From a virus, in the IMG/VR virus record IMGVR_UViG_3300042890_001842, positions 1 through 64,000 of that record: a stretch of DNA of 64,000 nt; one strand, given 5' to 3'. The stretch's first letter is position 1. Every line of letters starts with the position of its first letter. The position numbers and the translations under genes are program-made. The notes below the pieces were generated by a model. That model was not told the DNA's origin and did not search any database. It saw only the letters and a program-made list of their open reading frames with translations. This document shows, in pieces, positions 1 to 34,724 of the stretch.

Positions 1-77
1 TCAACGATTAACCTATCAATGCCAACAGGCAAAATGTACACAAAAGTAATTGACCGCATGGGAAAGGTAACAATTAA

Positions 78-269
78 ATGATGACACGAAAAGACTATGT
101 AGCAACCGCAGAAATTCTAAAGTATGCTAGCGATAAATCGCACCCCGCTTTATTTTCTAAAATCGTAAATGATTTTGCTGAAATGTTTGCGAAAGATAAT
201 CCACGATTTGATGTAACGAGATTTCATGAAGCGAGTGGATACAATGTTCCAAAATTCACTTCGAGATAA
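78..269 (+). CDS. hypothetical early protein
   Basis: ORF with RBS GAAAGG upstream. Confidence 0.7.
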   Translation: MMTRKDYVATAEILKYASDKSHPALFSKIVNDFAEMFAKDNPRFDVTRFHEASGYNVPKFTSR

Positions 270-381
270 AGTAAAGCGAATTCAGGAGTTGCGGAGATCA
301 AATGCCGCAACCCCTGTACGCAATAAGAAAAAATATTCAAGAAAAACAAAACATAAGCGGCGTGTCGATTTGACAGATTGA
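244..381 (+). CDS. small basic protein with ArfA-like tail (MFQNSLRDKVKRIQELRRSNAATPVRNKKKYSRKTKHKRRVDLTD)
   Basis: Hand translation, below ORF-track cutoff; K-Y-x-R-K-x-K-H-K motif. Confidence 0.5.
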   Translation: MFQNSLRDKVKRIQELRRSNAATPVRNKKKYSRKTKHKRRVDLTD

Positions 382-447
382 TCAGCTGCCCGCAATAGTG
401 TGGGGGCATAGAGGCTTTTAAGTCAAGCACCAAAACTCCCTGAAAAT

Positions 448-463
448 TGTGAGGTTTATCACA
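448..463. promoter_or_regulatory. CRP/GlxR-type site TGTGA-N6-TCACA
   Basis: tgtga ggttta tcaca, perfect consensus. Confidence 0.7.
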
Positions 464-500
464 AAATAAATCTGCGACACGCCGAAGGTGAATTAGTAAA

Positions 501-522
501 TGTCAGTAGGCCATGCTAAAAT
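501..522 (+). promoter_or_regulatory. early promoter TGTCAG-N10-TAAAAT (PafBC-type)
   Basis: One of nine copies with the same spacing. Confidence 0.8.
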
Positions 523-551
523 ACTCTTATTCCAACAACGAAAGGTATCAA

Positions 552-755
552 ATGAAAATCGAACACAACCTAAAGTTTGTAACAGAGTTTGCAGACAATC
601 ACCCAGTAACAGCACAAATGCTAAACATGCCTGAACCTATGCGTGTATTGCTATTAGAGTCAATGCTAAAAGAATTACTTGCACCACGCTTGCAACCTCT
701 ATTAGATGAAATCAATGCAGGTGGGTCATACGCAATTCTAAAGGTGGCTGAATAA
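552..755 (+). CDS. hypothetical protein (start MKIEHN)
   Basis: RBS ACGAAAGG before ATG at 552. Confidence 0.75.
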   Translation: MKIEHNLKFVTEFADNHPVTAQMLNMPEPMRVLLLESMLKELLAPRLQPLLDEINAGGSYAILKVAE

Positions 756-1030
756 TGGGATACACAACAGCATTAGCACTTGCAGATGACCTATCATTAG
801 AGGCAGGGTTAGCCTATCACTTACAGGCTAATCATTACCCACCCGTTCCCGTTGCTATGGTGCAACCTTGCATAGATGCTATTGATGCATACTATGATGA
901 GGACTATGGTCGTGAAGTATCTTTACCTGAAGGTATCTCATGGCGTGGGCAGGTAACTGCACCAGCACATGCAATAATTGATGCACACCACTTAGATGCT
1001 TGGCTAGTAAGCGAGGACTACGATGAGTAA
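755..1030 (+). CDS. hypothetical protein
   Basis: Coupled by TAATG overlap; HLxxNHYPPVP motif. Confidence 0.75.
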   Translation: MGYTTALALADDLSLEAGLAYHLQANHYPPVPVAMVQPCIDAIDAYYDEDYGREVSLPEGISWRGQVTAPAHAIIDAHHLDAWLVSEDYDE

Positions 1031-1163
1031 TCTTTATTCTATCTTATCTACTTGGTATCCTGAAGGAGACTTCAACGAAGCTGAATTGTGGGATGCTATC
1101 GCTGAAAACGAAGGCGTTGATGTAAATGAGATCATGGATGGCGATCTAACAGACTACCTGTGA
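1023..1163 (+). CDS. small acidic hypothetical protein (46 aa)
   Basis: Hand translation MSNLYSILSTWYPEGDFNEAELWDAIAENEGVDVNEIMDGDLTDYL; overlaps upstream stop. Confidence 0.6.
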   Translation: MSNLYSILSTWYPEGDFNEAELWDAIAENEGVDVNEIMDGDLTDYL

Positions 1164-1224
1164 TGTATCTCACACGACACTCCCCTCAGAAATGAGGGGA
1201 AATGTCAGTGGGCTATTGTATAAT
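1159..1224 (+). promoter_or_regulatory. CRP-type site, hairpin and TGTCAG-N10-TATAAT promoter
   Basis: tgtga tgtatc tcaca at 1159-1174; hairpin 1181-1200; tgtcag at 1203; tataat at 1219. Confidence 0.8.
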
Positions 1225-1254
1225 ACTACCAACAACAAAACGAAAGGAAACAAA

Positions 1255-1404
1255 ATGACAACACTAGAAATCGGACAGACATACACCACTTCAACAAGCG
1301 GTGTAACAGGAACAATCGTGGCGGTAGATAATCACCCAAGCGGTGTAAATCGTGTCTTGCTTGATGTCAATGGCAAAGAGCGTTGGACAAGCGTTCCAAA
1401 CTAA
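1255..1404 (+). CDS. hypothetical protein (start MTTLEIG)
   Basis: RBS CGAAAGGA upstream. Confidence 0.7.
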   Translation: MTTLEIGQTYTTSTSGVTGTIVAVDNHPSGVNRVLLDVNGKERWTSVPN

Positions 1405-1419
1405 TTCCTGATAAGGAAA

Positions 1420-1448
1420 AGTCCTGAGCATGACTACTAAAACTGCTC
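1420..1448 (+). ncRNA. putative H-type pseudoknot, copy 1
   Basis: agtc-ctgagcat-gact-actaaaac-tgctc. Confidence 0.55.
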
Positions 1449-1454
1449 ACAATT

Positions 1455-1476
1455 TGTCAGACCCCTATGCTATACT
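1455..1476 (+). promoter_or_regulatory. TGTCAG-N10-TATACT promoter
   Basis: Motif followed by an (AACC)4 leader and RBS. Confidence 0.8.
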
Positions 1477-1511
1477 AACCAACCAACCAACCAAACGAAA
1501 GAGGAAAATAA

Positions 1512-1937
1512 ATGGCTAGAAACGGAAAATCTATTAGCGTGAAAATCGCTACACCAAAGGTAATCAAGGCACTAGAAACACGCCTTGCTGAATTAGAAAA
1601 GAACTACGCTACACAGGGCGAGAACGAAGCAAAGTATCAGAAAGCCCGTGATAAGTGGCAAAAAGAAATTGGCAAGTGGGCTATGTCTAACTTCTCAAAG
1701 GCTGAGAACCTTCGTACAAACTATCGTAATTGGAACAAAACTCTCAATGTAGATTTTGACCTTACAGTAAATGAGAGCGACTTCCCTAAAGAACCTGAAA
1801 AGGATTTTGAGACAATTCACCAGCACACATACAATGAGCAGAAAGAGGAAATCACGAACGCAATTCGTATCCTCAAGATGACAGATGAGGAAACAGTAAA
1901 TACCTCAACCTATAACGCTATTGCTCGTTATCTGTAA
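1512..1937 (+). CDS. hypothetical coiled-coil protein
   Basis: 141-aa ORF with strong RBS. Confidence 0.8.
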   Translation: MARNGKSISVKIATPKVIKALETRLAELEKNYATQGENEAKYQKARDKWQKEIGKWAMSNFSKAENLRTNYRNWNKTLNVDFDLTVNESDFPKEPEKDFETIHQHTYNEQKEEITNAIRILKMTDEETVNTSTYNAIARYL

Positions 1938-1947
1938 ATAAATAGTG

Positions 1948-1984
1948 GGAGGGCTAGACACACTCTAGCCCTCCATGCTATAAT
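1948..1984 (+). promoter_or_regulatory. hairpin overlapping a TAGACA-18-TATAAT promoter
   Basis: Inverted repeat ggagggctag/ctagccctcc; extended -10 TGcTATAAT. Confidence 0.6.
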
Positions 1985-2011
1985 TCGTATCCCTACTAAC
2001 AAAGGAACAAA

Positions 2012-2269
2012 ATGAAAAATCGTTATCGTATCGAAATCTATGATGATGTAAAAGCAAATGATTTGACTATTTATTCTGAGTCAAATGTAGATAAAGAATA
2101 CTTAACTGAAATGGTATTCTCTAACTTAAGACAATTCTCTGGAAACATTCGTGCATACGTATATGACAATGTAAAGAAAAAGAAAACCACTGCACTGATT
2201 CTACCAATGGAATTGTTAGCTAAATATAGAAATTACAAACTTACTTCTGATGAAATACTAATGAATTAA
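2012..2269 (+). CDS. hypothetical protein
   Basis: ORF with RBS AAAGGA. Confidence 0.7.
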   Translation: MKNRYRIEIYDDVKANDLTIYSESNVDKEYLTEMVFSNLRQFSGNIRAYVYDNVKKKKTTALILPMELLAKYRNYKLTSDEILMN

Positions 2270-2328
2270 TAATTATGAGGCGGGATCCGTGCCCGCCTCA
2301 TATTATTTTGGCCCGCAAAGGTAAGGGG

Positions 2329-2358
2329 TTATCCACAGCTTTAAGAGAGTTATCCACA
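2329..2358. promoter_or_regulatory. two DnaA boxes (TTATCCACA)
   Basis: Perfect boxes at 2329-2337 and 2350-2358. Confidence 0.65.
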
Positions 2359-2370
2359 ATCCCCGAAATT

Positions 2371-2446
2371 TGTGAGATTGATCACACGAGACAATTCGGA
2401 CAAATGACTAACAAGACTAGTAAATGTCAGTCCCCTATGTTATACT
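2371..2446 (+). promoter_or_regulatory. CRP-type site and TGTCAG-N10-TATACT promoter
   Basis: tgtga gattga tcaca at 2371-2386; tgtcag at 2425; tatact at 2441. Confidence 0.8.
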
Positions 2447-2478
2447 CAATCCAACAACCAATCGAAAGGAAATAAATT

Positions 2479-3483
2479 ATGGCTCACAATCTAGAAGTCG
2501 AAAACGGCGAAGTTGCTTTTGCGCTACGTGGAAAACCAGCATGGCACAATTTAGCAAATCGCATCTTTACACAAGATGAAGAAGTAACTACACAAACAAT
2601 GCTTGAAGAGGCAAAGTTAGCAAATTGGAATGTTCGTCTATCTCCAATCGCTGAGCACATTCCAGAATCATGGAATGATGTTTCTACTGCATCTCTTGTA
2701 TTGCGTGACAATCCATTCAATGGCGGAACTGATGTTCTTGCAACTGTTGGAAAGCGTTATAAGCCTGTGCAGAATGAAGAATTGTTTGCATTCGCTGATG
2801 CAATTCATGATGCAAACGCTGACTGTCGCTGGGAATCTGCTGGTTCTCTAAAGCAGGGCAAAGTTGTATTTGGTACTGTTGATATTCCTCGCACAATGGT
2901 GCTTGACCCTAGCGGTGCTAATGATGAAACTAAGTTGTATCTAATTGTTTGGACATCTCATGACGGGTCTGTTGCTGTTCAGGCTGCTGTTACTCCTGTT
3001 CGTGTTGTATGCCAAAACACTTTGAATCTTGCAATGCGTAATGCAAAGCAATCTTTCAAGATTCGCCACACGCAATCTGTTGAAGGTCGCATTCAAGTTG
3101 CTCGTGAGACTCTTGGTCTTGCTCTTGGATACTTTGATGAATTTGAGAAGGAAGCGCAAGCACTCTACACTCAATCAATTACTGATTCAGAATTCTCAAA
3201 GTTGATTCAAACAATCTACCCAAAGCCTGAGAAGGATTCAAAGGGTGCTTTGAAGAAGTGGGAAAACAAAGTCGTTTTGCTTGATGACCTTTACCACAAT
3301 TCACCAACGAATGCTAATATCAAGGGAACAAAGTGGGGCGCATTCAACGCTCTAACTGAACGCCTAGATTATTATCGTTCAGGACGTGGCAATTCTGAAT
3401 CACTCATGGCTGGTGCATCAGGATTTGACCCTGTTCTAACTGCTGAGAAAAACAAAATCAAGAAATTGGTTTCTGCTTTCTAA
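2479..3483 (+). CDS. DUF932 family (phage/plasmid TIGR03299-like) protein
   Basis: Motifs AWH, YKPVQN, AGSL.G, SHDGS, TPVRVVCQNTL, IRHT, GT.WGAFNA. Confidence 0.9.
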   Translation: MAHNLEVENGEVAFALRGKPAWHNLANRIFTQDEEVTTQTMLEEAKLANWNVRLSPIAEHIPESWNDVSTASLVLRDNPFNGGTDVLATVGKRYKPVQNEELFAFADAIHDANADCRWESAGSLKQGKVVFGTVDIPRTMVLDPSGANDETKLYLIVWTSHDGSVAVQAAVTPVRVVCQNTLNLAMRNAKQSFKIRHTQSVEGRIQVARETLGLALGYFDEFEKEAQALYTQSITDSEFSKLIQTIYPKPEKDSKGALKKWENKVVLLDDLYHNSPTNANIKGTKWGAFNALTERLDYYRSGRGNSESLMAGASGFDPVLTAEKNKIKKLVSAF

Positions 3484-3489
3484 ATAAAA

Positions 3490-3517
3490 AAATCCTGAGC
3501 ATGATTTAAAACTGCTC
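3490..3517 (+). ncRNA. putative H-type pseudoknot, copy 2
   Basis: aaatc-ctgagcat-gattt-aaaac-tgctc. Confidence 0.55.
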
Positions 3518-3521
3518 TCTT

Positions 3522-3595
3522 GGTTCCATAGATTAATTGGTTAGATCGCCACCCTGTCACGGTGGAGGCTACGGGTTCAAGTCCCGTTGGAATCG
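3522..3595 (+). tRNA. tRNA-Asp (GTC)
   Basis: Acceptor ggttcca/tggaatc; anticodon arm ccacc-ctGTCac-ggtgg; T-loop ttcaagt. Confidence 0.9.
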
Positions 3596-3596
3596 C

Positions 3597-3728
3597 ATGG
3601 ATAAAAAAAATTACGCTCTCGCTGCATATAGAAAAGTTAAACGTGCAGAAAAATTAAAAAAGATCAAAGAGCTTGAAGAATATAATAATAAATGCGGGCC
3701 AGTAACAATAACTAAAATAAAAAAATAA
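3597..3728 (+). CDS. small basic hypothetical protein
   Basis: ATG directly after the tRNA; the track's earlier start overlaps the tRNA. Confidence 0.4.
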   Translation: MDKKNYALAAYRKVKRAEKLKKIKELEEYNNKCGPVTITKIKK

Positions 3729-3756
3729 ATACCCGCAGAGGTAAAAGCCAAAAAAT

Positions 3757-3821
3757 TGTGTTACGAGTCACAAATAAAATCCCTGAAACCCCTTGAAAAT
3801 GTCAGTGGCATCCGCTACAAT
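3757..3821 (+). promoter_or_regulatory. CRP-like site and TGTCAG-N10-TACAAT promoter (leaderless)
   Basis: tgtgt tacgag tcaca at 3757; tgtcag at 3800; tacaat at 3816; ATG at 3828. Confidence 0.75.
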
Positions 3822-3827
3822 ACTCAC

Positions 3828-4445
3828 ATGACCAACGAACTAATATCAAGTAAATATACATTTGTCTGCGATCCAGGTGAATGTGATTCTTTAATTGAAC
3901 TAACATCATCAGATGGTTTTGGATTTCCATCTGGTGTGACAAGGCTCACATGTCCTTGTGGAAGAGAAACCACATTATTGTCAGTGGAGCATGCTACAAT
4001 ACAACCAACAACAACGGAAGAGGTAAAAATGGAAACAACTACAGATAATCACTACATGACACGAGAGTTTCTTGAGTCAGAGTTAGTTAAAAATAAGGCA
4101 CGTATCGCACAATTAGAGGAGCAGGTCCAACGTGTAACCCAGCGTGATTACGCAACTGCAGGAACTCTAAATAAGTTACGTGATGACATGAAGGTATTTA
4201 CCTTGGAAGGTCTTGATGATGATTCTATTTCAGAATATCAGGCAGAAGAGATTGCAAGCATTTGCGGGTTCGAACTAACTAATGAGTTTGAGTTGACTGT
4301 AACAGTACAGTATTCAGTTACAGTTAATGCTCGTGACGAGGAATCTGCTATCAATGCAATTCATGAGACAGATTTCGATACTGTGTCATATGATGACCCA
4401 ATTACATATATGTCTTCATCTGTTGATTCAGTAGAGGTGGACTAA
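3828..4445 (+). CDS. hypothetical protein with N-terminal Cys-rich ribbon; nested second start at 4029
   Basis: CDPGEC...CPCG; internal RBS GGAAGAGG before METTT. Confidence 0.75.
   Translation: MTNELISSKYTFVCDPGECDSLIELTSSDGFGFPSGVTRLTCPCGRETTLLSVEHATIQPTTTEEVKMETTTDNHYMTREFLESELVKNKARIAQLEEQVQRVTQRDYATAGTLNKLRDDMKVFTLEGLDDDSISEYQAEEIASICGFELTNEFELTVTVQYSVTVNARDEESAINAIHETDFDTVSYDDPITYMSSSVDSVEVD
3935..4000 (+). promoter_or_regulatory. intragenic CRP-type site and TGTCAG-N10-TACAAT promoter
   Basis: tgtga caaggc tcaca at 3935-3950; tgtcag at 3979; tacaat at 3995. Confidence 0.75.
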
Positions 4446-4648
4446 TGTATTTTGAGTTAACCGCTCCAAACCAGTCAGCCCTTCACAGGGCTTACTGGGA
4501 TGCGGAGGTAATTGGATTGGACCCTAAGTTGATTGGTTCATTGACTTTCAATATTGGAACTGGTAGCATTGAGAAAGTAAGTCGCATTCGTGACAAGCAT
4601 AACTTAACTGAAAGCTATGTCTCAGACTATGAGCCAACAGGATATTAG
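4445..4648 (+). CDS. hypothetical protein
   Basis: Translationally coupled ORF. Confidence 0.7.
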   Translation: MYFELTAPNQSALHRAYWDAEVIGLDPKLIGSLTFNIGTGSIEKVSRIRDKHNLTESYVSDYEPTGY

Positions 4649-4657
4649 GAGGATAAA

Positions 4658-4813
4658 ATGGATTATCAAGATGGATTTGAAGACGGTGTAAAATTTGCTC
4701 GTGATGTTATTATTAATAACATTAGACTATGGGCAGAGACTTCAGATGATGGTCCCGCCTTCGATGAAATTGCAGACCGTATTGAATTTGGAAAGGTAGA
4801 CTATGACCTCTGA
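4658..4813 (+). CDS. small hypothetical protein (MDYQDGFEDG...)
   Basis: Hand translation; RBS AGGAGG. Confidence 0.65.
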   Translation: MDYQDGFEDGVKFARDVIINNIRLWAETSDDGPAFDEIADRIEFGKVDYDL

Positions 4814-5012
4814 AGATCTAACTAGATGGATTGGCTGTGATCAATGCGGTACAGCCCAAGCTTTATATTTAGTTAAACTAGTAGAAGGTGAGTTATTCTT
4901 TTGTGGCCACCACTACAACGCAAGCAAACGGGGCCTTGACAAGGTCGCATATGAAATAGTAGAATTGAACAAGAAAGAAGAAGTACCACAACTAACAGAA
5001 ATGGCGGAATAA
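4803..5012 (+). CDS. small Zn-binding protein of an actinobacterial type
   Basis: CDQCG.AQA...GELFFCGHH. Confidence 0.7.
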   Translation: MTSEDLTRWIGCDQCGTAQALYLVKLVEGELFFCGHHYNASKRGLDKVAYEIVELNKKEEVPQLTEMAE

Positions 5013-5014
5013 CA

Positions 5015-5419
5015 ATGGGAGATAGAGCAAACTTCGTATTCGTACAACCAAGCGGAGAAACAATTGTATTGTACTCACACTGGGGTGGACATCAAATGCT
5101 AGCAAATTTAGCAGAGGCAGTAGCCAAGGCACAACCACGCTGGTCTGACCCTTCATATGCAACACGCATTGCTATCAGTCAAATGATTGGTGATGGCTGG
5201 GCATTTGAAACAGGCTGGGGTTTAAATGTTAACTCAATTGGAGACAACGAGCACAAGATTCCAGTAATCGACTGGGGGCAGATGACGTTTAGTCTACACG
5301 AGGAAGACTCATTCCATAATCTTGATAACAAGGTTCGTGGCATGAAGAATGAAGCAATCTTTACTCAGGACCTGCGTTCGTTTGTAGAGAAATACTCTGA
5401 CGTTCCAATCCTAGTTTAA
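5015..5419 (+). CDS. hypothetical phage protein
   Basis: MGDRAN...LYSHWGG. Confidence 0.75.
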   Translation: MGDRANFVFVQPSGETIVLYSHWGGHQMLANLAEAVAKAQPRWSDPSYATRIAISQMIGDGWAFETGWGLNVNSIGDNEHKIPVIDWGQMTFSLHEEDSFHNLDNKVRGMKNEAIFTQDLRSFVEKYSDVPILV

Positions 5420-5522
5420 TTAATTAAAGGTGCCTCTATAGTCATCCAATGCGTTATGGCCAGGGGTTAAATAAAGCAGAGTTCTTTTACTTTCGTTGGT
5501 GATTCTCTAGCAGCCTTATGTA

Positions 5523-5556
5523 AAGCCCCAGCTCTGCCCCTGCAGCTGGGGTTTTT
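5523..5556 (+). terminator. intrinsic terminator
   Basis: Stem ccccagct/agctgggg followed by TTTTT. Confidence 0.7.
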
Positions 5557-5576
5557 ATATTGGCCCGCAAGAACTG

Positions 5577-5606
5577 AGGATAGCATAGACTATTTACGAG
5601 AGTCAA
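5577..5606 (-). promoter_or_regulatory. leftward sigma-A-like promoter TTGACT-18-TATCCT
   Basis: Reverse complement of aggata...agtcaa with TG extension. Confidence 0.45.
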
Positions 5607-5626
5607 TATATTTTCCTGAAATTTTG

Positions 5627-5710
5627 TGTGATCTTGACCACAAAGCTTGGAAAATGTGGTGTGGAACACACCAATAAAGTATTCCAAATGTCAGTGGGTC
5701 ATGTTACAAT
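5627..5710 (+). promoter_or_regulatory. two CRP-like sites and TGTCAG-N10-TACAAT promoter
   Basis: Sites at 5627-5642 and 5655-5670; tgtcag at 5689; tacaat at 5705. Confidence 0.75.
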
Positions 5711-5737
5711 TAAGCCATATCAACGAAAGGATATCAA

Positions 5738-6478
5738 ATGCCGAACTGGGTATATAATGGTTTGACTATCGAAGGCAAGCCTGAATCTGTAAAATCTCTT
5801 ATGGAGCAAATGAATAAGCCATTTGTTAAATTGCATGATACTTGGAATTCAACAACTCATCAAATGGAAGTAAAGCAAACTACTTATCCTAATCCTGTAT
5901 TTGCTTTTCATAATATCTATAATCATTTAGATGCTGGTATTACTGATGAGGAATACTTAAAACAACCTGACCATTCCCTCCCACTTGCAGAGGCTATGAA
6001 ATTTCAGGGCAACCATTGGTATGACTTCAATGTCCGTGAATGGGGCACAAAATGGGATGTTGGTGTTCATTCAGATGATAAGTATCCTGATACTACTGTA
6101 GAGGATGCTGTTAATGGTGAGAATCATGTAGTCCATTATAATTTTAATACCGCTTGGTCTCGTCCTATGCCAGCCTTAATTAAACTATCATCTCAATACC
6201 CTGACCTTCTATTTACTTTATCATATGAGGAAGAGACAGGCTGGGGCGGAGAGTTAGAAATTCTTCGTGGCGTAGTTATCTCAGAATCAGAATATGACAA
6301 TATGTGTCGTGACTGTGATGCAACTGACCAAATGGAATACTGCGAGAACGAATGCGGTGAAATCTGTGGCAACTGTAATTGGCTAGGAGAGGCTGACCTA
6401 GAGGCTGTCAAAGAATGTCAGACCCATAGTATATACTTAGAAACCAAAGTACCTGAATATAGAAAGGCGGAAGCATGA
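5738..6478 (+). CDS. DUF1281/YubB ferredoxin-like family protein with C-terminal Cys cluster
   Basis: MPNW.N.L.I.G, WY.....WGTKWD, F.TAWS.P. Confidence 0.8.
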   Translation: MPNWVYNGLTIEGKPESVKSLMEQMNKPFVKLHDTWNSTTHQMEVKQTTYPNPVFAFHNIYNHLDAGITDEEYLKQPDHSLPLAEAMKFQGNHWYDFNVREWGTKWDVGVHSDDKYPDTTVEDAVNGENHVVHYNFNTAWSRPMPALIKLSSQYPDLLFTLSYEEETGWGGELEILRGVVISESEYDNMCRDCDATDQMEYCENECGEICGNCNWLGEADLEAVKECQTHSIYLETKVPEYRKAEA

Positions 6479-6627
6479 GAACTATTGATGAATTAGTTAA
6501 TGAGATGTACATGGACAATGAGGCACATCTTGAATATATGGAGAACATGAACGGTGGGGATTGTGATTGTGGAATCCACACTACATTAAACACAATTGTT
6601 AAATACTGGTGGGATGAGGAGAAATAA
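6475..6627 (+). CDS. small hypothetical protein
   Basis: ATGA overlap; hand-translated 50 aa. Confidence 0.6.
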   Translation: MRTIDELVNEMYMDNEAHLEYMENMNGGDCDCGIHTTLNTIVKYWWDEEK

Positions 6628-6812
6628 TGCTAGGTTATGAAATGGCAGATGTAGATGAAATGATTAACTCAGTGCATGATGCTAAACTATTTTATCTTAG
6701 ATCTCCGTCAGATTTGGTTGACAAGCAACCATTAATTGACGGGTTAGAGAAGACAGTTAGTTTTCTCCAAGGACTATTAGAAGAAGGGCATTTTGATGGA
6801 TATCAAGACTGA
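6627..6812 (+). CDS. hypothetical protein
   Basis: Coupled ORF. Confidence 0.65.
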   Translation: MLGYEMADVDEMINSVHDAKLFYLRSPSDLVDKQPLIDGLEKTVSFLQGLLEEGHFDGYQD

Positions 6813-7008
6813 TTATCTAATTGAATATATGAAGATTCATTTAATTTCAATTGAGCAGGATTTAGAAAATATTGCTCAGGAAATGGAAGAATTAGACCCT
6901 GAATCTAAAGCTTGTAAAGAATTAGATTATGAGTATAACTACTTATCAGGACAGTCTATTGTAACCCGCCATTATTTGTCAGTGGCTAATGATAGAATGT
7001 CATCATGA
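6793..7008 (+). CDS. hypothetical protein
   Basis: ORF in operon. Confidence 0.65.
   Translation: MMDIKTDYLIEYMKIHLISIEQDLENIAQEMEELDPESKACKELDYEYNYLSGQSIVTRHYLSVANDRMSS
6977..6998 (+). promoter_or_regulatory. TGTCAG-N10-TAGAAT promoter (leaderless)
   Basis: ATG at 7005 follows the -10 after a 6-nt gap. Confidence 0.7.
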
Positions 7009-7277
7009 ATATATTAGAACTAGAACCACATCTGCAAAAGCAGGTAGACGCTGGGTCCTCTGGGACCGACATACTGCATGGGCACCTAAAGGTTCTCATG
7101 TTGGACGCAGAACGCCAATTAGAATTGGCACAATCGGCAGAAGATATATCTGGAGAAGCAATGGATTCCATGGAGCGGAAATACTGGGAAGGCGTCCTAG
7201 ACGCTTATGGAGATATATACGCAATGACATATGCATTAGCATTTGCTATAGATGACAGGAGTAAAAACAATGGCTGA
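7005..7277 (+). CDS. hypothetical protein
   Basis: ORF with phage-like composition. Confidence 0.7.
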   Translation: MNILELEPHLQKQVDAGSSGTDILHGHLKVLMLDAERQLELAQSAEDISGEAMDSMERKYWEGVLDAYGDIYAMTYALAFAIDDRSKNNG

Positions 7278-7623
7278 ATTAGATCTATTAGAAAAGACAC
7301 GTATGCAAGATGTACATAGAGATATTAATATAATCATTGATAAGATAACTAAACTTGGTGTCTTCCCTCCCCTGGTTTGGGTATGGTCATGGGATGTTGC
7401 TATGTCTATCTATACAGACATTCAGGAAGGTGGCGACCCTGACCTATGTGTATCTAAAGATGAAGATGAGATGTGGGAACTATTCTACACTCAGGCGGAC
7501 AAGAACGGGTTCACACTAGAGTACGGCGCAGAAGACCTATATGAGGCTGTCAGAGATTGGATGATTGACGAAGAGGTCGTAGAATACTATAATGAGGAGG
7601 AGGACGAAGATGAAGATGAGTGA
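7270..7623 (+). CDS. acidic hypothetical protein
   Basis: RBS AGGAG before MAELD. Confidence 0.7.
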   Translation: MAELDLLEKTRMQDVHRDINIIIDKITKLGVFPPLVWVWSWDVAMSIYTDIQEGGDPDLCVSKDEDEMWELFYTQADKNGFTLEYGAEDLYEAVRDWMIDEEVVEYYNEEEDEDEDE

Positions 7624-7753
7624 TGAATTTATCAATGATCAACTAAACAAAGCACAAAAGCTTTTGTGGGGTGGTAGCGAAACAGAGAACATCGAAGCAC
7701 ACAACATCATTGCTAAACTAATTAAAGACAGGATGCCTAATGACGAAGTTTAA
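7610..7753 (+). CDS. small hypothetical protein
   Basis: Hand translation; RBS GGAGG; fills the gap between neighbours. Confidence 0.55.
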   Translation: MKMSDEFINDQLNKAQKLLWGGSETENIEAHNIIAKLIKDRMPNDEV

Positions 7754-7976
7754 AGTATTTGGAGACATGCTCTTCACATTCTTCATGGATGTAGAAGCAG
7801 ATTCGCCTGATGAGGCATGGGACATTGCTAATAAGGCAGAGACTCATGAATGGACTCAGATTCTAGAAGACAAGACAGTTGAGGTCCACTTCGTTGAAGA
7901 AGTTGAAACTGAACTTGAAGACGGGTATCCGTCAATGAATAATGAAATAATCATAACTGAAGGACAAGATTCCTAA
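7740..7976 (+). CDS. acidic hypothetical protein
   Basis: VEA.S..EA motif. Confidence 0.65.
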   Translation: MTKFKVFGDMLFTFFMDVEADSPDEAWDIANKAETHEWTQILEDKTVEVHFVEEVETELEDGYPSMNNEIIITEGQDS

Positions 7977-8065
7977 AGGCGGTGGGCCTGCAGGAGGGGT
8001 ATTTACAAATTCCCTAAATTCGTATATAATATACATAACAACTCGATCTAGAAAGGATCAAACAA

Positions 8066-8212
8066 ATGGCAACAAAGCGTGAATATCTAGCAAGCAAGGG
8101 CATTACTGTAGGAAAGCGTGGACGTTTTTCATCAGCAGCAAAGCAAGCTCTTTCTGAGGCAGAAAAGCAAGGCGTGAAGTTTACTACAGAGGCACCTACC
8201 TCAAAGAAGTAA
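8066..8212 (+). CDS. Lsr2-like DNA-binding peptide (48 aa)
   Basis: MATKREYLASKGITVGKRGRFS resembles the Lsr2 C-terminal R.WA...G..V..RGR motif; own TTTACA-17-TATAAT promoter and RBS GAAAGGA. Confidence 0.7.
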   Translation: MATKREYLASKGITVGKRGRFSSAAKQALSEAEKQGVKFTTEAPTSKK

Positions 8213-8241
8213 TACAACTTAATAACGGAGGGCTGGCTAAA

Positions 8242-8263
8242 TGTCAGCCCTTCGTGATATAAT
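8242..8263 (+). promoter_or_regulatory. TGTCAG-N10-TATAAT promoter inside a hairpin
   Basis: Ninth copy of the motif. Confidence 0.75.
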
Positions 8264-8286
8264 GGCGGTTCTACGAAAGGCGGAAT

Positions 8287-8505
8287 ATGAGAAAACGAAC
8301 CAAAGTAGATAAAGTAATAGACCAACTGGAAGAAATCCTAAATGACTTCCATTTCCACCCAGCACTAATGGCAAATATAATCACAACTACATATCCACCC
8401 TATACACAACAAAAACTAATTGAACTAATCAAGTATATCGAACGGTATCACAATGAGGAAATCCAATTAGATAAAACATGTGGAACCCAACAATACAGTA
8501 AATAA
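8287..8505 (+). CDS. hypothetical protein
   Basis: RBS ACGAAAGGCGG. Confidence 0.7.
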   Translation: MRKRTKVDKVIDQLEEILNDFHFHPALMANIITTTYPPYTQQKLIELIKYIERYHNEEIQLDKTCGTQQYSK

Positions 8506-11952: not shown

Positions 11953-12441
11953 TTACTCATCAAGATCTAAGTCCAAAGTAATTAGTTTTTCCGTTTTATA
12001 GAATCCAAGTTCCGCTCTCTTTAGATAATCAAGTGCTCTGGTCAAAGACTCAATGTCATCTCCCAGCATGCCAATAGCATTATTACATACCTGGCATAGC
12101 CATCCCCTAAACTCATTAGTCTTATGACAATGGTCTAAAGACAGGTTAGCAGTAGTCTTTCCACAGTTATCGCATGGAGTTCCGATTGGTCTCTTTGATC
12201 CATAAACTTTCTTTAAGCTTTTCTCGCCAAGCCTTTCGTTTTTGTTGCAAGGCCTACACATATTTTTTCTATAAACTTTCTTAACAGATCTAGTAGTCAT
12301 CTCAAAGTCTTGAATGTTTTTTTCTTCAAGGCATATTCTACAGACACGAGTCTTGCTTGTGTCTTCGTATGGGCCATCGACTTCTTTATGATCCTGAATA
12401 GAATCAGGTTCGAATAAAAATGTTGGCATAACTACCTCCAA
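11953..12441 (-). CDS. endonuclease VII-like nuclease
   Basis: CxxC..LDHCH.T..FRGWLC..CN.AIG.LGD. Confidence 0.85.
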   Translation of the reverse strand: MEVVMPTFLFEPDSIQDHKEVDGPYEDTSKTRVCRICLEEKNIQDFEMTTRSVKKVYRKNMCRPCNKNERLGEKSLKKVYGSKRPIGTPCDNCGKTTANLSLDHCHKTNEFRGWLCQVCNNAIGMLGDDIESLTRALDYLKRAELGFYKTEKLITLDLDLDE

Positions 12442-13496
12442 ATCTCTAAGTTGTTTACATCCATTATATCATTTTCTTGAAGAAAAATGTGGTTATTTTT
12501 AAAAATATTTGAGAATTTATTGTAGTCAAAGTATCCTTTACTATTTAAAGATTGAACCTCTATAACTTTAACTGTGTTCTGTGACAGAATAGTATTTAGA
12601 ATATTTGTACCGTTGTACCCAGCTATTTCTGAGGATTCATTTATAATCTTATACTGGTCAATGAATGACATACCCTCAAAAGAAACAATATCAAATCCAT
12701 TCCTCTTAAACATATCTTCAACTATTAACTCATTTTCAAAAATTCTATGAAAATTCTCTTCATCTTGGTTATCTTTAAATAACCTGCTTGCTTGTATTCT
12801 GCTTATATATGTCTTCTTATCTTTAAATTCAATCTTATACTGATGCTTCAAGTTACTCTTAAGCTGATTAATCCCCTCTATAACCCACCTTTTATCAGTG
12901 TATGCCTTTGAGTAGTCTCTACTACCGTCACCAAAGTAATAATCAAGATAAAGTTCTGGGTCTTCCTTGTAAAGTTCAAGAAGGTCTAAGTCATCTCCTA
13001 TAAAAGTAAAACACTTTTCAATCTCTAAATTCATGGTTTGTCCATAAAAAAAGCTTCTGTTGTTATATATTAAACTGATGTCTTTAAAGTATTCAAAATT
13101 GCTTTTATCATCATAAATAAACTGCCTATTGTCAAACCTTTTATTATCAAGAAAAGATAAAAAACTTTGAGGATCAGAATTTACTTGACCAGAACTTAGT
13201 TCTTCATGAATAGGATACTGTACAACGAAAATTTGAACATCTAAGTTATCTATAATAGATTTACTATACTCTGCCAAAGAAACATTGTCCAATAGCATGT
13301 GAAAATACTTATTTGAAAAAAAGATTGGAAGTACATTACCACTTAAAAACTCTTTTTCTTTATTAATTGAGGACTTAGATTTTATCTGTAAATTATCAAA
13401 GACAGCAAAGTAATGATTGTCTATCTTAATTAATGTATGATCTTGAAACTTAAGATCTAAATCTTTTTTGATGTCATCTTTAGAGATATTTCTCAA
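12432..13496 (-). CDS. glycosyltransferase family 61-like (DUF563)
   Basis: YFH...D, YISR, R...NE, E.MSF.DQ, G.NG.N..N. Confidence 0.7.
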   Translation of the reverse strand: MRNISKDDIKKDLDLKFQDHTLIKIDNHYFAVFDNLQIKSKSSINKEKEFLSGNVLPIFFSNKYFHMLLDNVSLAEYSKSIIDNLDVQIFVVQYPIHEELSSGQVNSDPQSFLSFLDNKRFDNRQFIYDDKSNFEYFKDISLIYNNRSFFYGQTMNLEIEKCFTFIGDDLDLLELYKEDPELYLDYYFGDGSRDYSKAYTDKRWVIEGINQLKSNLKHQYKIEFKDKKTYISRIQASRLFKDNQDEENFHRIFENELIVEDMFKRNGFDIVSFEGMSFIDQYKIINESSEIAGYNGTNILNTILSQNTVKVIEVQSLNSKGYFDYNKFSNIFKNNHIFLQENDIMDVNNLEIWR

Positions 13497-19321: not shown

Positions 19322-19622
19322 TAGGCTTTCCCTCCAGTTCGCATCTTACTCCGTAGGACTCAATAATCTTCTTTACCATTTCGACATACTCTATAACCTT
19401 CATTTTTGCTGTTCCGTCGTATTGTCTAAAATTATCTTCATACAGTCTAATTGCTATAAATTCTGGATACTGAACAATATTCATCTTGAAATCGTTTACT
19501 GGCTTCTTAAGCTCTCTAATCTTGTTAGCCATCTCTTTATTATAAAATACTGGCTTGTTGGGTTCACCAGTCCATTGATTTATTCCATACTTAAAATGGT
19601 CTTTGTTTTTATCAATAAACAC
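19305..19622 (-). CDS. hypothetical protein
   Basis: ORF in operon. Confidence 0.65.
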   Translation of the reverse strand: MFIDKNKDHFKYGINQWTGEPNKPVFYNKEMANKIRELKKPVNDFKMNIVQYPEFIAIRLYEDNFRQYDGTAKMKVIEYVEMVKKIIESYGVRCELEGKPSDRIS

Positions 19623-19950
19623 CTTTACCCCTTAATCTTTTCCAAACTTCCGTCTCTTTATGTAAATTCTTTGTCTTGTCTATGGAACCAGAAGTTAGAT
19701 AAACTCCACCCCAAACACCATATTCAGAATTATTTACACCAGACTCATAACATATTTTAATGACTGGGCAAGATAGACATGCCTCGTCAATGCTTTTTGA
19801 TATAGTTGAATCTGTTTCATATTTATCATAAAATAAATTAGTATTCATTCCACGACATACGGCCAGATTAAACCAATCAAAATCATCTTTATCTATACCA
19901 AGATCATTTAAAATATTTGACATATTTTTTAGGAAGCTCCCATACTCCAA
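19612..19950 (-). CDS. whiB: WhiB family Fe-S transcription factor
   Basis: W...A.C.G...LF...C.SCPV...C...GVWGG; likely start MSNIL. Confidence 0.9.
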   Translation of the reverse strand: MEYGSFLKNMSNILNDLGIDKDDFDWFNLAVCRGMNTNLFYDKYETDSTISKSIDEACLSCPVIKICYESGVNNSEYGVWGGVYLTSGSIDKTKNLHKETEVWKRLRGKGVY

Positions 19951-22655: not shown

Positions 22656-24700
22656 TATATCCTCCTAGTCATGGCTGCTGCCACAATATTTCCTGCAATT
22701 ATCACTGGAATTACTACTTCCTGTGCTTTTTCTCTTTGATCATCTGTCATATCTTTACCCCACTCTGATGGGCTAAATACTTTTTCAAAGTCTATATCCA
22801 ATATAGCGCCTATTGGATCTGCCAAAAATGCCTCTGTTTGTACCTCTGTAGTGGCATCTGCTAATGTGTAAGGCATGGTTGCTCCTTCGGAAGCTGCCTC
22901 TCTGTCTTTAAATTCCACAAATGCAGTTGCTAATTCGGGATTAGATTTCATTGCTTCTGCAATTACTGCGACCTCAGATGACTTAATTCCAAGATCTTCT
23001 GCAACTTCAGCCTTTGCTTCATTTGTTAGTGCACTTAATGTTTGACTAACTGCAGCAATTTGTTCTTTAGAAAGTACAACTAGTTTATTATCTTTGCTTG
23101 TTAGATTAGCTATAACTCCAGAAAGATCTTCTGAAGTTCCCTCGCCTTTTTCTGGGATAAGTGCTGCTAATTCTTCATCTTTAATCTCAACATTGTCGGT
23201 TGGTTCTGGTGTTGGCTCAACCACTGGCTCTTCAGTTGGCTCTGGTTCTGGTGTTGGGTCTACAGTAGGTTCAGGTGTAGGTTCAGGTGTAGGTTCGGGT
23301 GTAGGATCTTCTGTAGGCTCTTCTGTAGGCTCAGGAGTTGGTTCTTCTGTTGGCTCTTCAGTTGGCTCTGGGCTTGGTTCAGGTGAAGGCTCAGGACTTG
23401 GGTCCTCAGTTGGTTCTGGATCTGGTGTGGTGTCAGGGGAAGGTTCTGGTGTTGGTTCTGGTGTTGGTTGATTTGCTGCTGCTTGTGCTAAAGCACTAGC
23501 TATCTCTCTGGCCTTTTGTTCTTCATAGTAACGCCATGCGTTATCAATAGAACTATTTAAATCACTAATAGATTGATCGTATGTAGTTTGTGAATTTATT
23601 TTATTTTCATTTGCATGTGTAAGGTTTTGATTTGCAAGTGTGAGGTTTTGATTTGCAAGTGTGAGGTTTGATTGTGAGGTTTGTAAGACTTGAAGTTCTT
23701 GATTATAAATAAATAGTTTATCGTTATAAACTTCTTGTGCTGATTGCTGTGAAGCTACAGCAATATTATAAGCATTAATTTGCTCTTGAGTTGCTCCAGA
23801 TCCAGAAGAAAATGTATTAAGATCACAGCTAAATCCTACACCCCATCCACCAGTATAATCACATCCAGCGCCAGTCCAACCTCCAGGAATTGCCCATCCA
23901 AGATGATATGAACCTGGACCTCCGCCGTTGTACCACCATATTTCTACATTTAAAGTTTTATTTTGACTAACATCATATATTGGAGAAAATGGACTCCAAG
24001 TAGCTCCTTGCTCACGCCAGTTATTTACTGCAAGATTTCCATCTACATACATTTTAAAACCATCATCTGTATATCCTGCAAAATATGTAGATGTCCAATG
24101 TGATGGTACTGTAATTCGTCCAGTAAATTTAACTATAATATTTTCATACCTATTTCCACAAACTGGAAGCTGCATAGAATTTGAATTCCATGTGCCACTA
24201 CATAAAACTTCATCTGGAGTAGCGCCAGCCTGCGTTCTAACTAAGCTATATACAGTATATTGAAGTCCTTCACCACCAGCACTTTGAATATTATATTGTG
24301 CTGTTTGAAGGTTTATATTTGCTATACCAAGGGCATCCTGAGCATTATTTTTATTAGTTAAAGCTAAATCTACTGTGACAGTTTGTCCATCTACTGTTGA
24401 TTGTGCTAAATTCTTTTGTGCTAAAGCTTCTGTTTCTGCTTCCACCGCATCATCGTATGCAATTGAGGCGCTATCCCTTAATTCTTTTGCAGCAACAGTT
24501 GCTTCATATTTATTTTCCGCAATATCTATTAAGGATATAAAATCGTCCTTATAATTTAAATTGTCTACACTATTGTTTAATTTTTGTATTTCTTGAGCAG
24601 CTAAGCTTAATGGATCATCGCTATGTGCTGGGGTTATGAAAAGCCAACCAAAGCCTAAAATAGCTGTTAGCGTTAATCTCCATGCTTTAGTCCTAGTCAA
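22655..24700 (-). CDS. surface protein: signal peptide, PA14-like domain, Pro/Glu/Thr stalk, C-terminal anchor
   Basis: FTG.I.VP...TDDGF..YVDG...NNW.EQ...WYNGGG. Confidence 0.8.
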   Translation of the reverse strand: MTRTKAWRLTLTAILGFGWLFITPAHSDDPLSLAAQEIQKLNNSVDNLNYKDDFISLIDIAENKYEATVAAKELRDSASIAYDDAVEAETEALAQKNLAQSTVDGQTVTVDLALTNKNNAQDALGIANINLQTAQYNIQSAGGEGLQYTVYSLVRTQAGATPDEVLCSGTWNSNSMQLPVCGNRYENIIVKFTGRITVPSHWTSTYFAGYTDDGFKMYVDGNLAVNNWREQGATWSPFSPIYDVSQNKTLNVEIWWYNGGGPGSYHLGWAIPGGWTGAGCDYTGGWGVGFSCDLNTFSSGSGATQEQINAYNIAVASQQSAQEVYNDKLFIYNQELQVLQTSQSNLTLANQNLTLANQNLTHANENKINSQTTYDQSISDLNSSIDNAWRYYEEQKAREIASALAQAAANQPTPEPTPEPSPDTTPDPEPTEDPSPEPSPEPSPEPTEEPTEEPTPEPTEEPTEDPTPEPTPEPTPEPTVDPTPEPEPTEEPVVEPTPEPTDNVEIKDEELAALIPEKGEGTSEDLSGVIANLTSKDNKLVVLSKEQIAAVSQTLSALTNEAKAEVAEDLGIKSSEVAVIAEAMKSNPELATAFVEFKDREAASEGATMPYTLADATTEVQTEAFLADPIGAILDIDFEKVFSPSEWGKDMTDDQREKAQEVVIPVIIAGNIVAAAMTRRI
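23198..23468 (-). repeat. PEPT/EEPT low-complexity coding repeat
   Basis: Visible roughly 12-bp periodicity. Confidence 0.85.
23622..23670 (-). repeat. 21-bp tandem coding repeat (NLTLANQ)
   Basis: ggttttgatttgcaagtgtga twice plus a partial copy. Confidence 0.8.
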
Positions 24701-24751: not shown

Positions 24752-25798
24752 CTATTTAGAACCTATTTCGCTAATCTTAGCTTTAGAAAACTTAAGCATT
24801 TTTGCACCTAGCGGAGAGTATCCTAAGTCTGCTGCTTTTTTGCCACAAGTATTTGCCATATAATCAAAAAACTTTTTTACAGATTCGTTATGTAAAGATT
24901 TTTCTTTGGACGCTATGCCATATGTAAATGTAGATATGGGATAAGCAAGCTTGTTAACAGTCTTATAGTTTACTTTAACTATACCCTTTTCGTCCATTGA
25001 AAAATCGCTTAAGAATACTGATGCTGCAGAAACTGTAGGCTGCATGTACCTTCCAGATTCATTTTGTATTGATGCCATTTTAAGGCCTCTTGCATATGAT
25101 ATTTCGTTATATCCAATAGAACCATTTGTTTGCGTCAAAACCATAGCCACTCCGTAGGATCCAGAAGCACTCATCATAAATGGATTACTACTTATTGATC
25201 CAGGAAATGATGAAGAGAAGTTTTTGTTGCCAGCCTTTGCCCATATACTTGGGGCAACGACATTTAAATAAGATGTAAATACTTCTGATGTTCCAGATCC
25301 ATCTACCCTGTAAGCAACTCTTATTGGGGTAGAAGGTATTTTAGGTTCTTTACCACCAATTAAATTTTCTTTTAAAATTTGAGGGTCATTCCATTTTGTT
25401 ATTTTTCCAGAAAATATTTTGGCCAATGTATCTGTACTCATCTTTATAGTTACTTTATATCCGTCTAGTCTATAAATTATTCCTATTGGACCAGCAACCA
25501 AAGGAACGTAAACAAATTCTTTTGTTGGTCTAACTTCTGATCCAGAGTACGGGACATCTGACATTGCAAAATTTGCTATACCATTTGAAAACATATTTTT
25601 TCCAGCTCCAGAACCATTTGGAGAATATGTTACAGAATCTCCACCAGACTTTACAAACTCAACTCTACATCTATCTATAAAGTTGGCAGCAAAAGTAGAT
25701 CCAGATCCAGTAATAGGTTCTGCGTTTGATGTGTTAATTAAAAAAACATTAGACAATAAGACTAATGTTGCTGTGACTACAATCAGTTTTAGTTTCAT
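24752..25798 (-). CDS. pstS: phosphate ABC transporter substrate-binding protein
   Basis: GSGSTF, GSGAG, FAMSD, IFSGKITKWNDP, R.DGSGTS, YPI. Confidence 0.95.
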   Translation of the reverse strand: MKLKLIVVTATLVLLSNVFLINTSNAEPITGSGSTFAANFIDRCRVEFVKSGGDSVTYSPNGSGAGKNMFSNGIANFAMSDVPYSGSEVRPTKEFVYVPLVAGPIGIIYRLDGYKVTIKMSTDTLAKIFSGKITKWNDPQILKENLIGGKEPKIPSTPIRVAYRVDGSGTSEVFTSYLNVVAPSIWAKAGNKNFSSSFPGSISSNPFMMSASGSYGVAMVLTQTNGSIGYNEISYARGLKMASIQNESGRYMQPTVSAASVFLSDFSMDEKGIVKVNYKTVNKLAYPISTFTYGIASKEKSLHNESVKKFFDYMANTCGKKAADLGYSPLGAKMLKFSKAKISEIGSK

Positions 25799-33296: not shown

Positions 33297-34724
33297 CTAC
33301 TGAACTTGTGATTCGTATTGTGTATCTATGGCAAGAGGGTTCTTGACATTCGGAGGCAAAGTATATACATTGAATATACCCTTTTCCCCTTTTCTAAATA
33401 TAAACCAATCTGTTGGGTGGTCCATTCCTATATCTTCAACATACTTGCACAACTTTTTAGCACCTTGTTTCGAAATAACATATCCAAGTGTAGACCAGTC
33501 TTGATAAGCTTTTGAGATATTATCACTTAAAGCATAAGATGCATTGAATCTTGAGTGCTGGTTACTGTCTACATATATGCTAAAGACATCATAATTTTTA
33601 GGTAAACTATTCATAGATATTTGATACTTATTATTAAACGATTCATCTACAATAATATCGTCTTCAAAAACCACAAGCTCATTTAAATCACTTGAGCATA
33701 AGTATTTCCATGCCATGTAGTGGCTTCCAAAATTTCCTATCTCTCCTAATTTAAATCCATCCCAAGCAAATTTAAACTCTGGGTTTTCTTTTTTAAATAG
33801 TTCTATCTCTCCATCTTTTTTTGCATTTAAAGATTTAATAGATACCTTATTGCCACCTACAATTTGATCTAGAACATCCCTATTATTTTTTCTAGAATCA
33901 TCTATGTATATTGTATGATAGTTGACAGGATACGTTTTTTTTAATAGATCAGGGTTAGATTTATAGAAAGACTCTACAGACATACAGTCTTCTAAATGTT
34001 GCATTCTTCCATAAATCTTGCTAGCAATAGATCTTAATTCCTTATCATGCATTTCATATTTTTCAGAAAAATCATAAAAGTGGTCTAATATCAAGGACAA
34101 TTCTTGAGATGCTACTGAATGGTCGTAGCTGCTTCCAGCTGGATGATTTAAAACATACTTTCTATCTCTTAGGATTAACTTATTGCTATTTATAATATCA
34201 GAACACCAGATCATATCCATGCCCCACCCACTAGTTAGCGTACTCATATCAACTTTACTGGAAAGGTATTCAAAGTATTGTTCAAGCAAGTCTACAACAT
34301 TTCTGTTTAGAAATACTGCTATGCCATCAGTTTGAATAGATACATTTAATCCAGTATCAAATTCTGACTCTTTTATCTTACAAGAATTCTCACTCCATGG
34401 CTCATTTGTTAAGTGGGGAGCATAGGCCCAAACATCATACATTGAAGTTACTTGTTGAGCTCTATTTATAAACTTCATCCAATTATCTGATGATACGTCT
34501 CCGCATAGCCAAAACATGTATTCATATGATCTATCAAAATCTTTAACTGCAGCATACAGTTGTCTATAAAATCTAATGTCTCCGACATTCATCCAGTTTT
34601 CACGAGGGTATGATCCAGAATTTATAACCTTATGAGGAATATTATTTGTAGTAAATATATCTTCTATTTGAAGAACATTGTTCTCTACTCTATCCCAACT
34701 TACAATATATGTAAAAAAATTCAT
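33297..34724 (-). CDS. two-domain glycosyltransferase (GT-A-like plus GT25-like)
   Basis: GWGMD in N-domain; GEIG.F.SH..W, FEDD, GYVIS..GA.KL, P.DW in C-domain. Confidence 0.75.
   Translation of the reverse strand: MNFFTYIVSWDRVENNVLQIEDIFTTNNIPHKVINSGSYPRENWMNVGDIRFYRQLYAAVKDFDRSYEYMFWLCGDVSSDNWMKFINRAQQVTSMYDVWAYAPHLTNEPWSENSCKIKESEFDTGLNVSIQTDGIAVFLNRNVVDLLEQYFEYLSSKVDMSTLTSGWGMDMIWCSDIINSNKLILRDRKYVLNHPAGSSYDHSVASQELSLILDHFYDFSEKYEMHDKELRSIASKIYGRMQHLEDCMSVESFYKSNPDLLKKTYPVNYHTIYIDDSRKNNRDVLDQIVGGNKVSIKSLNAKKDGEIELFKKENPEFKFAWDGFKLGEIGNFGSHYMAWKYLCSSDLNELVVFEDDIIVDESFNNKYQISMNSLPKNYDVFSIYVDSNQHSRFNASYALSDNISKAYQDWSTLGYVISKQGAKKLCKYVEDIGMDHPTDWFIFRKGEKGIFNVYTLPPNVKNPLAIDTQYESQVQ

Follow-up and report, generated by a model that had tools for sequence, protein, structure and literature searches.

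A stretch of 64,000 nucleotides (nt) of DNA from an uncultured phage, positions 1-64,000 of the 112,011-bp IMG/VR record IMGVR_UViG_3300042890_001842 (here called the window), carries a strand-specific and conserved class of promoters built on the element TGTCAG-N10-TANNNT, which in actinobacteria belongs to the promoters of the DNA-damage activator PafBC. Sequence comparison leads us to infer, with moderate confidence, that the PafBC of the host would drive this promoter class by 'sigma adaptation', aided by an extended -10 motif and by helically phased sites resembling those of the regulator CRP. The sites are most likely the promoters of a single temporal class, the early one; the size and number of the genes that follow them, as well as their position at the genome end, suggest early functions in the takeover of the host.

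Nine copies of the element had been listed in a preliminary description of this DNA (at 501, 1203, 1455, 2425, 3800, 3979, 5689, 6977 and 8242), and all of them proved to be exact and to lie on the plus strand, as does a tenth copy at 6416 that was overlooked at the time. These ten matches compare with 0.86 expected in the 64-kb window, and none of 100 shuffled sequences reached the same number. The whole record contains 22 forward and no reverse matches, versus 0 and 1 for the reversed-pattern controls. Four of the matches are duplicates that fall in a terminal repeat, and the addition of two TGTCGG sites gives 20 unique sites, located either from 99.9 kb to the right end of the record or within 1-8.3 kb. 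Apart from a doubtful outlier at 99,973, the sites are confined to a plus-strand arm, which begins at about 105.2 kb and extends across the repeat as far as 8.3 kb. The 10-nt spacer was found 20 times in the forward and never in the reverse orientation in this genome, and 1143 times forward and five times reverse in a set of 80 related lake-phage contigs (1.32 Mb), where forward spacers of 9 and 11 nt were found eight and three times, respectively. The lineage itself is represented by 310 related contigs, retrieved using one gene. Chance, or a repeated sequence with no role in transcription, would have nothing in its favour other than the shortness of the motif, and the excess in the window, the strand bias among the relatives and the fixed spacing and distance to the start codon leave it with a negligible probability.

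Each of the ten window sites is followed by a start codon, as had been claimed. In eight of them, an ATG comes 23-37 nt past the -10 box and behind a ribosome-binding site of the GAAAG or GAGG type, and in the other two a leaderless ATG comes 6 nt past the -10 box. Among the 20 unique sites, 18 have a start codon 6-76 nt downstream: 15 carry a ribosome-binding site of the GAAAG(G) type and have their ATG 23-39 nt past the -10 box (76 nt in one case), and three have the ATG only 6-7 nt past it (3800 with ATG 3828, 6977 with ATG 7005, and 107,138 with ATG 107,167, the start of a gene of the Pfam GP88 family). Leaderless messenger RNAs are common in actinobacteria. The geometry of these three sites is that of such messengers and would place the start of transcription where a sigma-A -10 box predicts it, and with respect to this inferred start TGTCAG or TGTCGG occupies positions -28 to -23 at all 20 unique sites. 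The absence of a good -35 box from most sites, also part of the preliminary description, held as well, with at most 0.14 bits of information at the -35 positions and a single window site out of ten (3800) flagged in a scan with the sigma-70 consensus.

The logo of 641 distinct sites reads aaaTGTCAG-[T/A]-[G/C]-[C/G]-c....tG.TAtAAT, and the TG of an extended -10 box is common in it (62% for the T and 78% for the G). Among the relatives, the DUF932 gene is preceded by 59 distinct upstream sequences, in which ATGTCAG, TGTTATACT and CGAAAGG are invariant, and the spacer between the first two is variable. The reverse complement of the element, CTGACA, was also considered as the -35 box of a divergent promoter and was rejected, since upstream of TGTCAG only A/T is conserved. 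Two lake-water metatranscriptomes and two wastewater libraries, the latter probably of DNA, yielded contigs of relatives (88-99% alike) in assembled form without read ends, and one assembled contig from these RNA and wastewater libraries continues upstream through a TGTCAG site.

In actinobacteria, the LexA-independent response to DNA damage has PafBC as its master activator. The PafBC consensus, tGTCgg(N10)tA(N3)T, has its 5′ part at -23 to -28 and no -35 box; the GTC triplet is strictly conserved in actinobacterial recA promoters and is read by residues R46 and R50 of PafB, and PafBC is placed between region 4 of sigma-A and the DNA, a mode of activation called 'sigma adaptation' (PMC8635444). 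The phage promoters resemble those of PafBC, also known as RecA-NDp or recA P1-type promoters (PMC8635444, PMC6789036, PMC11804915), in the GTC-containing -26 element at -28 to -23, the exact 10-nt spacer, the TAnnnT box and the lack of a -35 box, as well as in the preference for T and G just after TGTCRG and in the host phylum. The initial reading of the sites as PafBC promoters agrees with the published consensus in sequence, position, spacing and missing -35 box, but its mycobacterial frame is not supported. The agreement also extends outside the pattern that was searched: among 381 distinct phage sites, in a DNA of 38% G+C, the second and third base behind TGTCAG is G or C in 91-92% of cases, as it is in 19 of 21 and 21 of 21 sites, respectively, of the candidate host family described below. 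There are differences too. PafBC promoters are scattered in front of repair genes, whereas the phage packs about 18-20 copies in some 12 kb; its sites have an A at position 5 in 94% of cases, an added extended -10 box, an A-rich upstream flank, no LexA box and, in many cases, phased CRP-like sites, and their dependence on PafBC is a putative one.

Judging from its WhiB gene and from the identity of its DnaE-type polymerase (57%) and its DUF932 protein (~50%) to those of the Streptomyces phages of cluster BE (e.g., Samisti12 for the polymerase), the phage is an actinophage. Its G+C content of 34-40% and the occurrence of its relatives in lake-water libraries mark the host as a low-GC freshwater actinobacterium and not a Mycobacterium, and the mycobacterial frame does not suit a phage that comes from lake water and has a G+C content of 36-40% in this comparison. 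The phage PstS finds its best genomic match in a genome bin of Actinomycetota from a reservoir (G001; 37% identity), with loci of 37-43% G+C. Moreover, the tRNA-Met gene of the phage (29493-29567, minus strand) shares 87-93% identity with tRNA genes of 115 out of 151 genomes in the G001 family, and one binned genome of this family (G085) includes contigs 72-76% identical to the region of the phage gene with a PA14 domain (22893-24141), which are probably contigs of a related phage. Such similarities point weakly to the G001 family as the candidate host.

A search for pafBC in the host, and for WYL or helix-turn-helix genes in the phage, had been proposed as a check; pafBC was found in candidate host genomes, and the phage record showed no WYL domain and no PafB-like protein. 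All five freshwater actinobacterial genomes taken as candidate hosts contain an adjacent pair of WYL-domain genes. The best solved relatives of the G001 pair are PafB and PafC of the RNA polymerase-PafBC complex 7P5X (E 2e-31 and 3e-28), and the candidate PafB of G001 keeps the RMFER stretch with R46 and R50; the residues with which PafB reads the DNA are conserved between Mycobacterium and the candidate hosts. TGTCAG-N10-TAnnnT precedes recA in G003, and a gene for a DnaQ-like DEDDh exonuclease and a DUF6504 gene in both G001 and G003. It is often directly followed in the candidate hosts by the actinobacterial LexA box TCGAAC-N4-GTTCGA, and the composite TGTCRG-N10-TAnnnT-TCGAAC is present in 20 of 41 genomes of the G001 family (21 matches versus 0 in the controls). 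No genome-wide enrichment was detected in the candidate hosts, which have 4-9 sites each, a number equal to or below that of the reversed-pattern control. The element is therefore not a general promoter feature of these bacteria, and the informative host sites are those found before damage genes and those in composite with a LexA half-site.

These host data also bear on the idea that TGTCAG is read without PafBC, either by another host factor or through a contact intrinsic to the RNA polymerase of the host lineage. The host is known only as a candidate clade, actinobacteria carry several WYL regulators each (PMC6789036), and a third WYL match besides the pair is present in G001, G003 and G005. 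The scarcity of the element in every candidate genome argues against such an explanation, as does the fact that, before identifiable genes, the host sites mark DNA-damage genes with LexA boxes, which is the setting of PafBC. No other factor known to us recognises a -26 element with such a spacing, and we regard this second way of reading the element as quite unlikely.

It had also been suggested that the phage could encode its own PafBC-like adaptor, which was not borne out: the complete 112-kb record contains no WYL domain, no PafB-like protein (the host PafB, used as query, gave no match) and no CRP-type helix-turn-helix. Therefore, the promoter class most likely relies on host factors. A precedent for phage-made factors exists in the middle promoters of bacteriophage T4, where a MotA box at -30, together with AsiA, provides an element between -35 and -10 that replaces the -35 box ('sigma appropriation'). 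The comparison with PafBC lies in that an adaptor bridges region 4 of sigma to the DNA (PMC8635444). T4 encodes its own adaptors, whereas none was found in the phage record, where the element is the one of the host. In the manner of MotA/AsiA, a phage protein of no recognisable family, either produced from the few ordinary promoters or borne by the virion, could read TGTCAG and recruit the RNA polymerase, and the likeness to PafBC would then be convergence or mimicry. Such a protein could hide among the early products, most of which have no known family, and two plus-strand promoters are ordinary and free of the element (1955-1984 and 8002-8030). The first of them serves a single, highly conserved gene of 85 amino acids (aa), which is isolated by a terminator (2012-2269, ending at a strong hairpin). 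The 697 homologues of its product are apparently all within the lineage, and the predicted model (predicted local distance difference test, pLDDT, 77.5) is a beta-beta-alpha-beta-beta-alpha sandwich. The model has no helix-turn-helix and no significant match among solved structures, with a weak RbcS-type likeness (E >0.1), and as modelled the 85-aa protein would give a phage-made reader no support, phage proteins of unknown fold aside. Besides the lack of any WYL or PafB-like sequence in the record, expression from almost all of the arm, terminal repeat included, hinges on the element, which would leave little expressed before the factor exists, and only coincidence would account for the exact agreement with a host element in both sequence and spacing. 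A reader made by the phage is thus an unlikely solution.

The density of the sites, about 18-20 in 109 kb of phage DNA as compared with 4-9 in 0.8-1.9 Mb of host DNA, and the extended -10 box present in most of them would also fit plain extended -10 promoters of sigma-A, in which TGTCAG, on many copies of the phage genome, acts as a sponge for PafBC that blunts the damage response of the host, or as a shut-off operator. However, a decoy needs neither an invariant 10-nt register with the -10 box nor a single strand, and sites with no extended -10 box (1203, 3800 and 6416) still precede genes, so this use of the element appears very unlikely.

A second host protein may act on the same promoters. 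CRP-like palindromes (TGTGA-N6-TCACA, with at most one mismatch) occur 14 times in the unique genome, 13 of them in the plus arm, and 11 promoters have one. Their centres are found at about -64, -74, -84 and -95 from the inferred start, that is, in steps of one helical turn, as in class-I CRP promoters, whose centres lie near -61.5, -72.5, -82.5 and -92.5. Searches for the host CRP in the candidate genomes, which are incomplete, gave sub-threshold matches only.

Under the favoured explanation of activation by PafBC, the process would start with the PafBC of the host, constitutively present, reading the TGTCAG sites of the phage. Once loaded with single-stranded DNA (ssDNA), PafBC would insert between region 4 of sigma-A and the DNA, with the helix-turn-helix of PafB reading the GTC. 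The ssDNA could derive from the incoming linear genome, from the attack of host nucleases on this genome, from replication or from ultraviolet damage, and its appearance would turn on the block. A basal level of transcription would come from the extended -10 box, and the CRP-like sites, spaced as in class I, would provide another input from the host. The complete record yielded neither a tyrosine nor a serine recombinase, and the phage is probably strictly lytic; a temperate lifestyle, in which induction would explain the wiring to DNA damage, was rejected for the same reason. A more far-reaching proposal, which we put forward as tentative, is that in this lytic phage the ssDNA alarm of the host PafBC, set off on entry of the linear genome, by nuclease attack or in surface-water cells damaged by ultraviolet light, would ignite the whole early block, that the many sites would titrate PafBC off the repair regulon of the host, and that early transcription would be run by the host PafBC together with a CRP-family protein, with no phage adaptor.

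Several points weigh against the activation by PafBC. An extended -10 box is present in about 60-78% of the phage sites and in none of the sampled PafBC sites of the host, and could make the promoters partly independent of the activator. An early class that requires the ligand of an alarm would be a risky design. The link with the G001 family is made up of a similar G+C content, a PstS identity of 37%, a tRNA-Met identity of 87-93% and phage-like contigs in one genome. Finally, Samisti12 serves its syntenic genes from ordinary promoters, and the element is not enriched in any of six cultured actinophages; therefore there is no tractable system showing the class yet.

Samisti12 of cluster BE, the closest cultured relative, shares with the phage a syntenic block of small genes and a DUF932 gene, which lie in its terminal repeat and near the genome end. 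Its promoters are ordinary (TAGACA or TTGACA, 17-18 nt, TAGACT), and TGTCRG sites number 0 forward and 3 reverse; the true repeats of cluster BE, with syntenic genes, are of about 10 kb. The six cultured actinophages that lack enrichment are Samisti12 and five others that share the DUF932 gene (Francob, Warren, LuckyBarnes, Laurie and Beans), and a megablast search found no near-identical records among cultured phages. The -26 element seems to have arisen in the freshwater lineage, on a layout of genes that is itself conserved. In the Microbacterium phage Warren (MK737944.1, positions 23003 and 28515), two TGTCGGTG-N8-TAnnnT sites occur on the coding strand, with no matches for the control; one of these TGTCGGTG sites is located 57 nt before the ssb gene, encoding an ssDNA-binding protein, and may represent a promoter of the PafBC type in a phage available in culture.

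Phages wired to the SOS response through LexA/RecA also tie their transcription to the DNA-damage signal of the host, as this phage would do. The SOS wiring relies on derepression and is found mainly in temperate phages, whereas here it would be an activation, in a phage with no integrase found. The statement that nothing of this kind had been described in phages agrees with full-text literature searches on RecA-NDp and on PafBC in connection with phages and mycobacteriophages, which found no account of phage promoters of this type; a 2025 study on pafBC and mycobacteriophage resistance is known to us by citation only. Related ssDNA-sensing WYL regulators are reported to control anti-phage defence. 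If activation by PafBC is true, the phage would exploit an ssDNA alarm, the reverse of the defence regulated by WYL proteins, and in the most abundant bacteria of fresh water the expression of phage genes would become linked to DNA damage and hence to sunlight. It would also be the second natural example, after MotA/AsiA of T4, of phage promoters that replace the -35 contact, in this case by means of a host adaptor, with a whole promoter class built on the PafBC element in a lineage that is widespread in lakes.

Table 1. Promoters and other features of the window, with positions in the numbering of the window.
Feature	Position	Strand	Remarks
Terminal repeat, left copy	1-3269		exact, 3,269 bp; carries four promoters; ends inside the DUF932 gene
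CRP-like palindrome TGTGA-N6-TCACA	448-463		centre about -73.5 from the inferred start
Further CRP-like palindromes	1159-1174, 2371-2386, 3757-3772, 3935-3950, 5627-5642		seven more at 105.2-108.0 kb of the record
Promoter	501-522	+	TGTCAG-N10-TAAAAT, extended -10; GAAAGG ribosome-binding site; ATG 552
Plus-strand gene block	552-8505	+	~26 small genes, almost all of unknown function; DUF932, DUF1281_C, DUF7455
Promoter	1203-1224	+	TGTCAGTGG...TATAAT, directly 3′ of a hairpin; ATG 1255; no extended -10
Promoter	1455-1476	+	TGTCAG...TGcTATACT; ATG 1512 (141 aa)
Ordinary promoter without the TGTCAG element	1955-1984	+	TAGACA-18-TGcTATAAT
Promoter of the DUF932 gene (2479-3483)	2425-2446	+	exact motif kept in all 59 distinct upstream sequences from relatives
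Promoter	3800-3821	+	leaderless ATG 3828, 6 nt past the -10; sole site with a -35-like TTGAAA; no extended -10
Promoter inside the 3828-4445 frame	3979-4000	+	in-frame ATG 4029 with ribosome-binding site, would give a shorter product
Promoter of the 246-aa DUF1281_C/Api92-like gene (5738-6478)	5689-5710	+	
Promoter	6416-6437	+	within the final 60 nt of the 5738-6478 gene; ATG 6475, with GAAAGG, 37 nt downstream; no extended -10
Promoter	6977-6998	+	leaderless ATG 7005, 6 nt past the -10
Ordinary promoter without the element	8002-8030	+	TTTACA-17-TATAAT; serves a 48-aa basic protein (8066-8212)
Promoter, last of the arm	8242-8263	+	overlaps a hairpin; ATG 8287
WhiB-family gene	19612-19950	-	PF02467, E 3.9e-10; actinophage marker

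The exact repeat of 3,269 bp has its two copies at 1-3269 and 108743-112011 of the record. Its boundary falls in the middle of the DUF932 gene, and therefore it is probably the wrap point of the assembly rather than a physical genome end. The plus-strand block of small genes (Table 1) stretches leftwards across the repeat as far as about 105.2 kb in the record, and the families found in the whole plus arm are DUF932, DUF1281_C/Api92-like, DUF7455 and GP88, the remaining genes being almost all without known function. The minus-strand arm (9-97.8 kb) encodes WhiB, PstS, glycosyltransferases, DnaE, DnaB and structural proteins, and shows ordinary promoters (e.g., TTGACA-N17-TACAAT, and many TGnTATAAT) and AGGAGG ribosome-binding sites, with no TGTCAG element. 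The two arms also differ in their translation signals, with A/C-rich leaders (AACAACAA) and CGAAAGG sites in the plus arm and AGGAGG in the minus arm. The gene of the PstS-like phosphate-binding protein and several glycosyltransferase genes (GT61, GT25) map to 24752-25798, 12432-13496 and 33297-34724, all on the minus strand, and the right arm additionally has a 2OG-Fe oxygenase, GT61 genes and a sulfotransferase.

Within the plus arm, the frame at 3828-4445 has two promoters, the one at 3800 leading to a leaderless product of 205 aa and the one at 3979 to a product of 138 aa from ATG 4029, and may encode nested long and short forms. The 48-aa basic protein (8066-8212) has a GKRGRF stretch, which we take to recall the DNA-binding end of Lsr2, a protein encoded by cluster BE phages in the syntenic block; the 48-aa protein has no Pfam match.

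Two other short motifs are concentrated in the same region. Six perfect DnaA boxes (TTATCCACA) were found at 2329, 2350, 8825, 8837 and 8861 (reverse) of the window and at 107948 (reverse) of the record, all of them either in the plus arm or in the non-coding switch of orientation at 8.5-9.0 kb, and the box at 2329 is invariant in the relatives; they may correspond to an origin or to the use of the host DnaA. An 8-mer that contains GACAC (GCGTGTCG, or its complement CGACACGC) is present in ten copies, nine of them in the plus arm (360 and 475 of the window, and 105564, 105854, 106003, 106699, 106790, 107900 and 107996 of the record). Several of these copies lie 15-30 nt upstream of TGTCAG, and the 8-mer may be a third regulatory site.

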